Virus record (IMG/VR): IMGVR_UViG_2547132415_000009
Location: 1-4,142 of that record
Strand: one strand, 5' to 3'
Length of the DNA stretch: 4,142 nucleotides
Source of the DNA: a virus
Lineage: Duplodnaviria > Heunggongvirae > Uroviricota > Caudoviricetes
A program made the translations under genes and the position numbers. Every line of letters starts with the position of its first letter. Within the stretch, counting starts at the first letter, position 1. The notes below the pieces were generated by a model. It was not told where the DNA came from and made no database searches. It saw only the letters and a list, made by a program, of their open reading frames with translations. Below, piece by piece: positions 484 to 4,021 of this stretch.

Positions 484-524
484 TAAGTGATATTGGTTGT
501 CTGGAGATTCAGGGGGCCAGTCTA
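484..524 (-). repeat. IS2 left terminal inverted repeat (IRL, about 41 bp) at the element/prophage boundary
   Basis: The terminal TAGACTGG... motif ends exactly at 524. The adjacent left-end region (441-500) contains the palindromes ACTAGT...ACTAGT and TCACTTAAATAAGTGA typical of the IS2 left end. The exact inner boundary of the IR is approximate. Confidence 0.8.
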
Positions 525-1268
525 AACGCCGATCTCACACGTAACCAGTAAAGGAAAACTAGTTCTCCAATTTAGCTCGCCAATTACAGGCATTCGCTCA
601 CTACAGCTTATCCAACTATCCGGAGTTACCGGATAGTTGCGCATTGCGACCTTTAATGCCTCATAGAAGCAACCTTTCAGATTGTTGAACTGACGCCCAT
701 TAAGAGGACCGTGTTCAGTAAGCATGTTGCGTAATTTCCATGCCGCGTCGTTTACTTCGTTGGATGACAGGGGAGGCAACTTGTAAGTTTGGCTTACAGG
801 TTCGGCACCATGAAGCATGGCGCCGCTCCGCTCTATGCCATCCAGCGCGATTCGCAGTGCCTGAATTGTGGTAGAGCTATCGTTTGGGGCTATTCCATAT
901 CGCTCGAATACAGCTAAATGGTTGCGCATAATCTCAGGCGTAAGCTCTTTGTAAGCATAAGCAAGAGGCTCTGATGCATTATCCGGCACAACCGACGCAG
1001 GCGCGGCAGCATAAACAGGAATAACGTCAGCTTGCTCTTTATTGCTTTCATCCGTTAAAGCCCAGAATAATTTCCCGGCCGGATGTTTGAAAATATAAGC
1101 AACTGGATCTGCTTCCAGCGATGCCAGTGCAATTTTAAATGCGGTAAGTATGTTGTTAACCACACCTATTTCGAATGCTATTTCACTACATACAAACGAT
1201 TTATCGTCTATTATCGACTCAATTCCGGTAATCGTGTTCTGTAACCATTCTTTGGTAAGAGTATTCAT
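522..1268 (-). CDS. Hypothetical prophage accessory protein, 248 aa as read; 3' end truncated by the IS2 insertion (stop codon supplied by the IS2 terminus)
   Basis: Long ORF with ATG at 1268, 2 nt after the stop of the upstream 63-aa ORF. The final codons GGC GTT TAG use 522-524, which are the terminal TAG... nucleotides of IS2, so the native C-terminus is missing. No family recognised with confidence. Confidence 0.6.
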   Translation of the reverse strand: MNTLTKEWLQNTITGIESIIDDKSFVCSEIAFEIGVVNNILTAFKIALASLEADPVAYIFKHPAGKLFWALTDESNKEQADVIPVYAAAPASVVPDNASEPLAYAYKELTPEIMRNHLAVFERYGIAPNDSSTTIQALRIALDGIERSGAMLHGAEPVSQTYKLPPLSSNEVNDAAWKLRNMLTEHGPLNGRQFNNLKGCFYEALKVAMRNYPVTPDSWISCSERMPVIGELNWRTSFPLLVTCEIGV

Positions 1269-1270
1269 AA

Positions 1271-1462
1271 CTATTTCACTTTAATCTCAATATTTCGCAG
1301 CTTTAGCTCTACTGGCAGGTCTGACTTTCCTGTTAACGCTAATGCGAGATTTTCAGGAGTAATGAGAGCAGTTATTGTTTTCCCTATTGCCAGACGAATA
1401 ATCATTCGTATCTCGCGATCGTCACATGCTCCCGGTCGAACAATTGATATTTGTCCGATCAT
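1271..1462 (-). CDS. Hypothetical small protein, 63 aa (MIGQISIVRPGACDDREIRMIIRLAIGKTITALITPENLALALTGKSDLPVELKLRNIEIKVK)
   Basis: ATG at 1462 is preceded by AAAGGAGAG (GGAG 6 nt upstream), and that Shine-Dalgarno overlaps the TGA stop of the upstream 217-aa ORF. The ORF-track start at 1492 looks like a spurious extension. No homology recognised. Confidence 0.5.
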   Translation of the reverse strand: MIGQISIVRPGACDDREIRMIIRLAIGKTITALITPENLALALTGKSDLPVELKLRNIEIKVK

Positions 1463-1463
1463 C

Positions 1464-2117
1464 TCACTCTCCTTTGATGCGAATGCCAGCAAGCCAGTTT
1501 CTTATGCCGATATATTCAGCGTTCCTGAAACCGCTTTTTACATATATAAATGGCAAGCGAAGATTGTGACCATTGGCTGCCAGGTAGTCTTTACAACCCT
1601 GTTCGGTGAAACAGCAGGTAACGAATTCATCAATATCTTTCACAGCAACGCGCCGCCATTTTTCTGGTGGTTCCCGAAAGTTTTCATGAAGTAGTTCGAG
1701 ACGACGACTTTGGAGTTTATTGGCTTCATTGCTATCTTCATCAACCCAGACAATCCGGTCATAGTCATAATCAGCATCAACAACAATTTCGCGCTTTTGA
1801 TACACACAAAACATAGGGTCTGACGTTATTCGATTATCCTGTGTTCGAATGTTTTCACCGATGATGCCAAACGAATCTGGCGTAGGTTTTGTCTGTAACT
1901 CTTCGATACGTTCAGCCAGCGCCGCGCACTTGGCCTCAAGGTTATCAATCGTGATTCCAGCAGAACGACACTCCCGCAACGCCGTTTCCAGTTTTGATTC
2001 AAGTTCACCGAACTTACGGACAAGATATTCAGCGTTTGTTTCGTTAACCTTTAAATCTCGTGGGATGCATTTACCTTTCAGAAATCCATCCATCTCAATT
2101 AGTGACATTTGTTTCAT
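1464..2117 (-). CDS. Hypothetical protein, 217 aa; predicted coiled-coil N-terminal half and acidic, Cys-containing C-terminal half
   Basis: Longest unassigned ORF. The ATG at 2117 overlaps the TGA stop of the upstream 54-aa ORF (ATGA) and has GGAG 9 nt upstream. The ORF-track start at 2135 is a GTG with no Shine-Dalgarno. The helical heptad-like stretch [44 protein letters not shown] is judged by eye. Confidence 0.6.
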
Positions 2118-2278
2118 TTCTTCCCACTCCGCCACATCGCATTCAGATATTTGTTTTGATTCACTGACGGAAAAGAATTTCTCTTAAGCAATTCCTCTCT
2201 CGATGGCATTGGCTTTACGCGTTGGCGAATAATCATTTCTGCCGGAAGAATGCCGGGATTGTATGCAAGTCCTCTCAT
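2114..2278 (-). CDS. Hypothetical small basic protein, 54 aa ([54 protein letters not shown])
   Basis: ATG at 2278 has a strong Shine-Dalgarno (TGAGGAA, 6-nt spacer) that overlaps the TGA stop of the upstream 97-aa ORF. Its own stop overlaps the start of the 217-aa ORF. The ORF track shows a longer 104-aa form from 2428, which would overlap the 97-aa gene out of frame; I prefer the short form. Confidence 0.45.
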
Positions 2279-2288
2279 GGTAAATTCC

Positions 2289-2582
2289 TCAGTCATTACT
2301 GATAGCGCCATAACGTGAGCGGTAATTACGCAGGCGCGGGTCAATTTCAGGGAAGTGGGTATATGTGGCTTTGCGGAATGGTCGGATTGATGTCTGGTAA
2401 ATTCGCTCGCGTTCTTCTTTCTCTGCAAGCCATATACAGTGGCGAAATTCCTTTTCCTCTTTCGTTTCCTGCGGTAGAGACATTATTCGGTCGTAGTTTT
2501 TTCTGAATTTATCCAGCACCTCCGATACGGAATTGCCGGAACAGCGGCGCGGGTCATCCGCACCATACAGAGGCGCTGGCAT
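2289..2582 (-). CDS. Hypothetical highly charged protein, 97 aa
   Basis: ATG at 2582 is preceded by TAAGGAT (AAGGA, 7-nt spacer) in the 23-nt gap after the SSB-like gene. Translation [63 protein letters not shown]... No homology recognised. Confidence 0.55.
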
Positions 2583-2605
2583 AATTAAATCCTTATTTTT
2601 CTAAA

Positions 2606-2989
2606 TCAGAATGGGATGGAATCGTCGTATACAGGAGTGTTCTGCTGGTTACTACTTTGCTGCTGCGGGCCATTTCCTGAAGCTGCAAATCCAATCTTTG
2701 CATTCAGTAATTCAAGAGTGATTGATTGACCATTTTGCCCCTGATAAACATCAACCCTGATGTTTTCTCCGGTAATTTCCACAATGCCACCTTCAGCAAG
2801 AACACTACGGTAGTAATCCGCTTGCGCTCCCGGCTTGGCAAATACAACGGCGCTGTAGTTTGTCCATTCTTTCTTTTTTGTCTGGCGATCGTAATACTGA
2901 ACGCCAGCACGGATGTTGAATCCGATATTTTCCCCGGCCTGAAACTCTCTTGCGGGCTTGTTTAGTCTTACAGTAATCGAATGTGCCAT
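2606..2989 (-). CDS. Phage single-stranded-DNA-binding-like protein (lambda Ea10-like), 127 aa, with acidic C-terminal tip ...VYDDSIPF
   Basis: The C-terminus ends in DDSIPF, closely resembling the conserved SSB C-terminal protein-interaction tip (DDDIPF). The start ATG overlaps the erf stop (TAATG at 2987-2991). The ORF-track N-terminal extension to 3079 runs inside erf and is rejected. The Ea10 family assignment is from memory. Confidence 0.65.
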   Translation of the reverse strand: MAHSITVRLNKPAREFQAGENIGFNIRAGVQYYDRQTKKKEWTNYSAVVFAKPGAQADYYRSVLAEGGIVEITGENIRVDVYQGQNGQSITLELLNAKIGFAASGNGPQQQSSNQQNTPVYDDSIPF

Positions 2990-3594
2990 TAAGCGGCCGC
3001 CCCTTCTAATTCGTCTCGTCTGATGTTGTAAACGTCCTGCGCTTTGTGCTGCTCCGGTGTGCCTTCGAGCATCTTCCACGCTTTGGCGAACGCCTGTTTA
3101 AGCTCTTCCACGGTGTTTTTCTGCAATGCTGCGTCAGTGAATGCTTTTAGAACCTGTTCAGGTGTAGGTGATGGTTTTGATTGCTTTGCTGCTGCGTTCT
3201 GCTGATGTTTATGCTCGTCGGTATCTGCATCTTTCGCATCATCAATGCCGAACAAACCATTGAGGCAATACTTGCGTGCATAAGAGCTTGTAGCTCCAGT
3301 AACTTGTGCAGAATCCATTCCTTTCTTGCTTTCTTCCTCTCGTGCAAGAGCGGTTGCCGTATGACTGTTTTCGCCATCGGTAATAGTTGCCGTGGCTTTC
3401 ACGTAATACCGATCACCAATCAACACAACTTCATCGCTGATTGATAAAAACAGGCCATTCAGTAACGGCTTAACGCCTTCAAGAATGTCTTCGCAGCTTC
3501 TGTATTTATATTTGCCGAATGAGTTGTACTGATTCTTTGGCGCGTTCAGATTCTCCTGAATAGCTGCCAGTCTTGCGTAAAATTCTTTGCTCAT
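2989..3594 (-). CDS. erf: Erf-family single-strand annealing protein (essential recombination function, P22 Erf-like), 201 aa
   Basis: Translation MSKEFYARLAAIQENLNAPKNQYNSFGKYKYRSCEDILEGVKPLLNGLFLSISDEVVLIGDRYYVKATATITDGENSH...ATSSYARKYCLNGLFGIDDAKDADT matches the P22 Erf N-terminal domain as I recall it. The start is placed at the ATG at 3594 (MSKEF...); the ORF-track start at 3624 is a TTG extension. Confidence 0.85.
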   Translation of the reverse strand: MSKEFYARLAAIQENLNAPKNQYNSFGKYKYRSCEDILEGVKPLLNGLFLSISDEVVLIGDRYYVKATATITDGENSHTATALAREEESKKGMDSAQVTGATSSYARKYCLNGLFGIDDAKDADTDEHKHQQNAAAKQSKPSPTPEQVLKAFTDAALQKNTVEELKQAFAKAWKMLEGTPEQHKAQDVYNIRRDELEGAAA

Positions 3595-3683
3595 ATGTTT
3601 GTTCTCAGAATGGACATGGCCCAAGGAAATAACGCTGATTTAATACTTCAGTCTTTGCCGCATTTAAAAATACGCGAACACCT

Positions 3684-3854
3684 TCACGATCTCCCTTCTG
3701 GCGATACATTAACGCCTGCTGCGTGTACATGCGTCTCTGTAACTTGCTCTCCTTCACTGTGGTTGCAAGTGACATGCATATCTCCTTCGTTACCGATTAA
3801 TTCTTTCATCTGACGAATGAATTCTTCGTCTGACCAGTTATCTGTAAAACTCAT
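3684..3854 (-). CDS. Hypothetical small acidic protein, 56 aa, with a His/Cys cluster (MHVTCNHSEGEQVTETHVH); sits where kil/arf lie in P22
   Basis: ATG at 3854 overlaps the TGA stop of the cIII-like ORF (ATGA), with AAGG 6 nt upstream. The ORF-track start at 3884 is a TTG extension. No confident homology. Confidence 0.45.
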   Translation of the reverse strand: MSFTDNWSDEEFIRQMKELIGNEGDMHVTCNHSEGEQVTETHVHAAGVNVSPEGRS

Positions 3855-4021
3855 GGACGGCCTTGTTGTTTCAAAATATCCCAAAGCTTTTCGAGCAAAC
3901 TTTTCATTCTTGGTTGTTTAAAGTCTGCTCCGGTTAAAATATTTTTTCGTGAATGCTGTACCGATAAAATCGGGTTGAAAGGGCGAACCGATGCCGCCCC
4001 TGCAATAGCGAACTGTTGCAT
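3851..4021 (-). CDS. cIII-like small regulator, 56 aa (MQQFAIAGAASVRPFNPILSVQHSRKNILTGADFKQPRMKSLLEKLWDILKQQGRP); putative FtsH-inhibitor family
   Basis: Not in the supplied ORF track; found by hand translation. Strong Shine-Dalgarno AAGGAG with a 6-nt spacer before the ATG at 4021. The N-terminal MQ-FAIAG and C-terminal KLWDILKQQGRP resemble lambda CIII (MQYAIAG... KRLIDILNQPGVP) as I remember it, and the length is similar. Confidence 0.5.
   Translation of the reverse strand: MQQFAIAGAASVRPFNPILSVQHSRKNILTGADFKQPRMKSLLEKLWDILKQQGRP

Follow-up and report, generated by a model that had tools for sequence, protein, structure and literature searches.

Known accessory genes, abc2 among them, in a probable lambdoid early-left operon of Escherichia coli

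The window analyzed here is the entire 4142-bp contig AQEI01000032.1 of the draft Escherichia coli assembly GCA_000354915.1 (strain E. coli 174750), and the subject is a run of five open reading frames (ORFs), ORF1 to ORF5, between positions 522 and 2582. With high probability, the region stems from a lambdoid E. coli prophage of the HK97/HK022/P22 type and comprises the promoter-distal part of its early-left (pL-type) operon, a mosaic of a known kind composed of known genes, the last of which, ORF5, is cut by an insertion sequence (IS). All relevant genes lie on the minus strand, to which the coordinates below refer, in the order CIII, small ORFs of the Arf region, Erf, a gp40 protein resembling single-stranded DNA-binding proteins (SSB-like), Abc2, DUF2737, an EaE::Ea22-V3 chimera, an HkaF-like protein, an EaA-like DUF551 protein and an IS3-family (IS2) element. 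This reading is carried by the gene identities, the synteny with P22, HK97 and HK620, the purifying selection, the mosaic blocks and the IS truncation of ORF5, all documented here. A sequence-only reading had described five tightly packed ORFs of 97, 54, 217, 63 and 248 residues; the ORF list, independent stored gene calls for the contig and our own reading of the sequence all agree with it. It had also placed them in a variable early-accessory position, which is indeed the mosaic "ea" or exo-xis region of the promoter-distal early-left operon. It missed the strand of the genes and the fact that ORF5 is not intact. Its observation is real and its interpretation largely wrong; the locus is already known in kind.

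ORF1 (2289–2582, 97 residues) is identified by its sequence as full-length Abc2 (anti-RecBCD protein 2), with a predicted RecBCD-binding activity. It matches PF11043 (Anti-RecBCD_p2) over positions 1–97 of 97 (E = 6.1e-64, 212.7 bits for a cut-off of 25), phrog_656 "abc2 anti-RecBCD" (E = 2.6e-55), and the PDB chain 8b1t_A (E = 2.2e-58), which is the P22 Abc2 chain of the RecBCD-Abc2 cryo-electron microscopy structures 8B1T and 8B1U. ORF1 and P22 Abc2 are equal in length and 93.8% identical. Residues 3–52 of Abc2 form the helices lying on RecC, and Pro68 occupies the active site of PpiB (PMC9836394); in ORF1, the sole difference within residues 3–52 is L32R, Pro68 is conserved, and six C-terminal substitutions lie where the solved structure is disordered. 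Abc2 binds RecC, whereupon RecBCD assists recombination instead of destroying linear phage DNA (PMC9836394). The gene sits in the early-left operon near an Erf-type recombinase, in the order erf, SSB-like gene, abc2, as in HK97 and HK022. The location downstream of erf is common to P22, whereas P22 abc2 adjoins abc1 and the window carries, in the abc1 slot, an HK97-gp40-type SSB-like gene instead. The sequence-only reading, which recognized no abc homolog and supposed that one or more of the ORFs replace a missing abc or gam function, thus loses its premise: abc2 itself is present, and ORF2 to ORF5 are not orphans. None of these four matches Gam or another family of RecBCD inhibitors in Pfam, PHROGs, NCBIfam or the PDB; the NCBIfam search gave no match for any protein of the window. 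In E. coli R18 (L002), the closest E. coli relative for the segment from ORF4 to erf, the abc2 copy (4599–4892) contains an internal stop and bears a pseudogene annotation, and the DUF551 genes there lie in fragments, which shows that the region continues to decay in resident prophages.

ORF2 (2114–2278, 54 residues) belongs, by its sequence, to the DUF2737 family and is the counterpart of P22 ORF56, HK97 gp38 and HK620 HkaI, with identities of 75, 94 and 100%, respectively. The match to PF10930 (DUF2737) spans positions 1–52 of 53 (E = 2.6e-31, 107.7 bits for a cut-off of 25) and that to phrog_1117 has an E-value of 4e-38; a PDB sequence search with ORF2 gave nothing significant. The three remaining ORFs match PHROG families with E-values between 1e-39 and 4e-67, so that the earlier statement that none of the five can be assigned to any family does not hold.

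ORF3 (1464–2117, 217 residues) is best described, from sequence comparison, as an in-frame chimera of an EaE/HkaH-type N-terminus with its coiled coil (residues 1–66) and an Ea22-V3-type C-terminal domain (residues ~67–217). Residues 1–66 match the N-terminus of the EaE-type HkaH of HK620 and that of an E. coli prophage protein (alignment A1), with 96–97% nucleotide identity to HK620 hkaH and to the L004 prophage, and the C-terminal 162 residues are 93% identical to a 315-residue Ea22-type protein of the Shiga toxin (Stx) phage PA2. The PHROG matches divide the protein into phrog_614 (residues 1–75) and phrog_3205 (residues 64–216). The junction (1913–1938) lies at a shared motif, CAA(L/M)AERIEE, and the same join is found in P0003. 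The record of vB_EcoS_P27 matches the window in the same way as PA2, and P27 Ea22 is the published variant "V3" (PMC10834534). ORF3 has the architecture of the Ea22 variants, a coiled coil followed by a portable C-terminal domain, in common with Ea22 V3 (P27/PA2) and with lambda Ea22; in the full-length AlphaFold2 (AF2) model, helices span residues 28–52 and 57–76, with a predicted local distance difference test (pLDDT) score of 71–78. Ea22 proteins, however, have an N-terminal region and a PF13935 signature, both of which are absent from ORF3. It gave no match to PF13935 (Ead_Ea22) even at E ≤ 1, whereas homologs with its C-terminal domain do carry PF13935; its relatives are annotated "Ead/Ea22-like".

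The family of ORF3 counts 6,881 matches, and the exact 217-residue form is on record only in this contig. The HK022 Ea22-like protein is 83% identical, with its coiled coil replaced, and sister chimeras in HK022, E. coli R18 and other genomes (235, 207 and 196 residues) differ in the length of the coiled coil. Comparison of L001, L002, L003 and L010 showed at least three independent in-frame junctions between an N-terminus of the EaE/HkaH type and one and the same Ea22-type C-terminal domain; that of HK022 and E. coli R18 reads ELESKL|NEQREY, with coiled coils of different length. All compared Ea22-type proteins, lambda's included, have AGIRIKGE as their last residues, seemingly a conserved boundary for recombination. 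Lambda Ea22 shares this ending with ORF3, whereas its C-terminal domain, solved by nuclear magnetic resonance (NMR), is unrelated to that of ORF3.

Gene for gene, the window (erf, gp40-like, abc2, DUF2737, EaE::Ea22 chimera, small protein, DUF551 protein) follows the template of P22 (erf-abc1-abc2-ORF56-eaE-orf45-eaF-eaD-eaI-eaA-eaG-eaC-xis-int) and of HK97 (erf-gp40-abc2-gp38 (DUF2737)-gp37-xis-int), as do HK620, HK022 and E. coli prophages. The best DNA match of the window is HK022, with 97% nucleotide identity over 1990–3854 (erf to the start of ORF3), and the E. coli EC17CM7 prophage is 97% identical over 1913–3854. From erf to the start of ORF3, order and sequence are those of the HK97 and HK022 early-left operons; the gene after DUF2737 differs in its coiled-coil segment, and the window then continues with hkaF-like and DUF551 genes of another lineage and with the IS. 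Positions 575–1938 align as a single block, at 99.6% identity, with a prophage of another type altogether (yfdPQR/PrtN type) in STEC1588, and likewise with PEC41. Block by block, ORF2 to ORF5 share 93–100% identity with genes annotated in HK97, HK022, HK620, Stx phages and thousands of E. coli prophages. The earlier label of a P22-like prophage goes beyond what this contig can decide.

These comparisons bear on the proposal, built on the sequence-only reading, that the five ORFs form a novel moron or anti-defense cassette which stands in for abc/gam and is transferred as one piece. Such a cassette would suit the position, a recognized accessory-gene hotspot, the lack of a demonstrated function for four of the five proteins, and a PADLOC scan that matched none of the five to a known defense system. 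Against it stand an abc2 nearly identical to that of P22, close homologs of each of the five genes in classical phages, the IS truncation of one of them, and the fact that the five genes are not inherited together. At least 80% of 525–2582 is found in one place in no phage record and in 0 of 5,426 complete E. coli genomes, while 2,839 of the 5,426 hold parts of it; the five genes therefore do not travel as a unit, and we consider the proposal highly unlikely. By sequence, the so-called cassette apparently consists of two or more blocks that exchange independently and came to lie side by side by chance; they meet within ORF3 at the CAA(L/M)AERIEE microhomology, block 1 running from erf to the N-terminus of ORF3 and block 2 from the C-terminal domain of ORF3 to ORF5. 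The locus is thus one more lambdoid early-left accessory mosaic, with abc2 in place and one gene broken by an IS, and in itself matters little. It is also a cautionary case: short, fast-shuffling phage genes should not be called unassigned without profile searches.

ORF4 (1271–1462, 63 residues) belongs to the HK620 HkaF family. It matches phrog_1222 over positions 1–63 of 63 (E = 8.5e-39), its region is 93% identical in nucleotides to the hkaF region of HK620, and no match was found in the PDB or Pfam. HK620 HkaF (63 residues) and HkaI (54 residues) stand in the same relative order as ORF4 and ORF2, with no notable difference. The family comprises 76 clusters across Enterobacteriaceae, nearly all of 63 residues and all annotated "hypothetical", and this length is kept in prophages of Escherichia, Salmonella, Enterobacter, Citrobacter, Cronobacter and Tatumella. 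Homology to P22 EaI or lambda Orf63, which are similar in size and position, was considered and set aside, given no similarity to EaI and no PDB match; an NMR structure of lambda Orf63 has reportedly been published.

ORF5 (522–1268, 248 residues) is an EaA-like DUF551 protein that, judging from its sequence, was truncated at its C-terminus by insertion of an IS into the gene. Intact homologs measure 265–300 residues and carry PF04448; one of them, P0124 (279 residues), is 99% identical over residues 1–227. ORF5 itself lacks a complete DUF551 domain. It scores 16 bits with PF04448 (cut-off 22) over profile positions 1–10 of 68 only, and retains the first ~31 residues of the domain. The homolog in L004 extends 57 residues past the last ORF5 residue of the window, and the shortfall relative to intact homologs is ~50–57 residues. 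Homology to uninterrupted phage DNA, as in L004, begins exactly at position 525, so that the TAG stop of ORF5 (522–524) is IS sequence. Positions 1–524 form the left end of the IS3-family element; over this stretch, the identity to a transposase element annotated as IS3-family in E. coli FXCREC035 is 99.2%. The stretch contains the transposase gene orfA (68–433, 121 residues), which matches PF01527 HTH_Tnp_1 (E = 1.9e-19), and the element is oriented in the same direction as the phage operon. By our reading of the terminal repeat, it would be IS2.

The family of ORF5 is large (7,063 matches), and a PDB sequence search with it gave nothing significant. P22 EaA, the last large ea gene before xis/int, holds the same position and is partly similar: an N-terminal SLEA.PVA motif and the (D/G)WISCSERMP start of DUF551 are common to ORF5 and to the P22 EaA/DUF551 proteins, whereas the middle region is unrelated and ORF5 lacks the dATP/dGTP pyrophosphohydrolase domain. 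YfdS of E. coli CPS-53 is another DUF551 (PF04448) protein. In relatives, several DUF551 genes carry pseudogene annotations. Through the loss of most of its DUF551 domain, ORF5 is probably inactivated, and the IS may exert a polar effect on the genes that once followed, xis/int in relatives; the prophage may be locked in or cryptic.

The five ORFs are tightly arranged. A GAGGAA Shine-Dalgarno sequence, as read from the DNA, overlaps the TGA stop of abc2 and lies 10 nucleotides before the ATG of ORF2, the ORF2 stop and the ORF3 start overlap as ATGA, and gaps of 1 and 2 nucleotides separate ORF3 from ORF4 and ORF4 from ORF5, respectively. We calculated ratios of nonsynonymous to synonymous substitution rates (dN/dS) by the Nei-Gojobori method, with HK022, HK620, P22, Stx phage PA2 and four E. 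coli prophages as reference DNA. The values range from 0 to 0.3 in all five frames (ORF1, 0.04–0.13; ORF2, 0–0.3; ORF3, 0.11–0.21; ORF4, 0.19–0.25), apart from one ORF5 comparison, which gave 0.6. On the plus strand, antisense ORFs of 110, 112, 63 and 53 residues found no match in a PHROG search and were treated as spurious. From the low dN/dS in every frame and the lack of PHROG matches on the antisense side, it follows that all five ORFs are, as far as sequence can tell, genuine genes under purifying selection. The sequence-only reading had left room for ORFs that are not conserved as coding sequences, and these values speak for conservation instead. That some of the five are not genes, having arisen as ORFs by chance or being left over from decay in a cryptic prophage, is suggested by the truncation of ORF5, the internal stop of abc2 in E. 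coli R18 and the DUF551 pseudogenes in relatives; the dN/dS values, the conserved lengths of the 54- and 63-residue proteins across genera, the strong full-length PHROG and Pfam matches and the Shine-Dalgarno start contexts make this extremely improbable.

By analogy with relatives, the five genes would be co-transcribed, at the distal end of the N-antiterminated early-left transcript, and their overlapping or abutting stop and start codons suggest translational coupling. Abc2 would bind RecC and redirect RecBCD while Erf and the SSB-like protein carry out phage recombination, so that linear phage DNA is spared. The Ea22-type protein could oligomerize through its coiled coil, present its C-terminal domain to a host partner and bias the lysis-lysogeny decision; the DUF2737, HkaF-like and EaA-like proteins would be small accessory early proteins. 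Some points weigh against the early-left operon reading. A promoter and terminator scan of the window gave counts at or below the shuffled expectation, and the operon structure is thus argued by analogy with relatives. Because the contig stops within the IS, the other half of ORF5, the target-site duplication, the downstream xis/int and the state of the prophage, intact or cryptic, lie beyond view. Lambda and Stx-phage Ea22 favor lysogeny (PMC7093339, PMC10834534), and because the Ea22 N-terminal region and PF13935 are missing from ORF3, carrying this phenotype over to it is weak. An Rfam search of the window detected no RNA family, and a repeat search only short chance matches.

Two by-products of the analysis, a structural model for the Ea22-V3-type C-terminal domain and the adjacency of abc2 and DUF2737, may be worth specialist attention; neither the domain family nor the gene pair is confined to this window. 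Residues 78–217 of ORF3 (positions 1467–1886) make up its C-terminal domain, a widespread phage domain for which Pfam has no model: at E ≤ 1e-3 the search retrieved the representatives of 1470 clusters formed at 50% identity, at E ≤ 1e-10 those of 810, and 0 of 81 diverse members had a Pfam model over the domain. It occurs at either end of proteins or stands alone, and the names of cluster members are uninformative. Published AlphaFold and ESMFold attempts left the structure of the Ea22-V3-type C-terminal domain unsettled (PMC10834534). With full-length ORF3 and 39 near-identical E. coli homologs, AlphaFold gave a pLDDT of 44 for the domain, and this shallow-alignment model was kept out of the fold search. 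Repeated with 81 diverse representatives, the prediction reached a pLDDT of 93.1 and a predicted template modeling (TM) score of 0.78, so that a confident model of a very widespread domain is now at hand. In a BFVD search, it retrieved uncharacterized phage proteins only (TM up to 0.73), and it had no neighbor in the PDB; PDB searches with the ORF3 sequence and with the family profile gave nothing significant and nothing, respectively. Invariant or nearly invariant polar residues are Q93, N95, R96, T98, C169, C175, H184, N185, R198, N199, E201 and R206 (alignment A3, ORF3 numbering). We tentatively raise, as a reading that is possible rather than probable, that this widespread domain is a phage effector not described before and has a new fold; its conserved polar residues point to a site for catalysis or ligand binding, which might carry the pro-lysogenic activity of Stx-phage Ea22.

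A second novel reading, weaker than that of the C-terminal domain, makes DUF2737 an obligate partner of Abc2. At a coverage of at least 80%, Abc2 is found in 224 phage records and full-length DUF2737 in 223. The DUF2737 gene lies directly downstream of abc2 in P22, HK97, HK620, HK022 and E. coli prophages, and in the sampled records that list both positions (62–100% Abc2 identity) the two are always adjacent, 10–13 nucleotides apart, as seen in P22, HK97, HK620, ECO95 1-6-1, Stx2 phages and E. coli prophages. The near-equal record numbers and an adjacency that holds even at 62% Abc2 and 72–75% DUF2737 identity would be expected if DUF2737 were a functional partner of Abc2, the third component of the anti-RecBCD/Erf recombination module. 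We regard this as doubtful: as far as is known, recombination assays need only Abc2 and an annealase, several hundred virulent phages of the Jersey- and Kagunavirus types without an Abc2 match carry the C-terminal 30 residues of DUF2737 as well, and the tight linkage may reflect merely a common recombination block. The strict adjacency across divergent phages nevertheless raises the possibility of a small, unstudied partner of the Abc system, which would be topical, RecBCD inhibitors being known triggers of abortive-infection defenses.

Upstream of abc2, the recombination genes had been named correctly by the sequence-only reading. The single-stranded DNA-annealing recombinase Erf (2989–3594, 201 residues) matches PF04404 (E = 2.1e-44) and is 74.6% identical to P22 Erf. 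The SSB-like protein (2606–2989, 127 residues), a homolog of HK97 gp40, matches the SSB family phrog_44 (E = 5.1e-27) and ends in DDSIPF, an SSB-type acidic tail; a PDB sequence search with it gave nothing significant. Its gene lies between erf and abc2, in the position of HK97 gp40 and the slot of P22 abc1. A divergent Abc1 was considered for it and rejected, as it bears no similarity to P22 Abc1. Further upstream, the ORF list and the independent gene calls place a CIII-like protein of 56 residues (3851–4021) and a small ORF of 56 residues (3605–3775). Within 3605–3884, two ORFs overlap in different frames and match separate PHROG "recombinase" families, phrog_1723 (E = 4.5e-34) and phrog_2123 (E = 1.9e-39). 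Substitutions in the overlap favor the 3605–3775 frame, with a dN/dS of ~0.25 compared with 0.3 synonymous (Sd) and 8.7 nonsynonymous (Nd) differences in the other frame, whose ORF has an Arf-like SDEEFI N-terminus.

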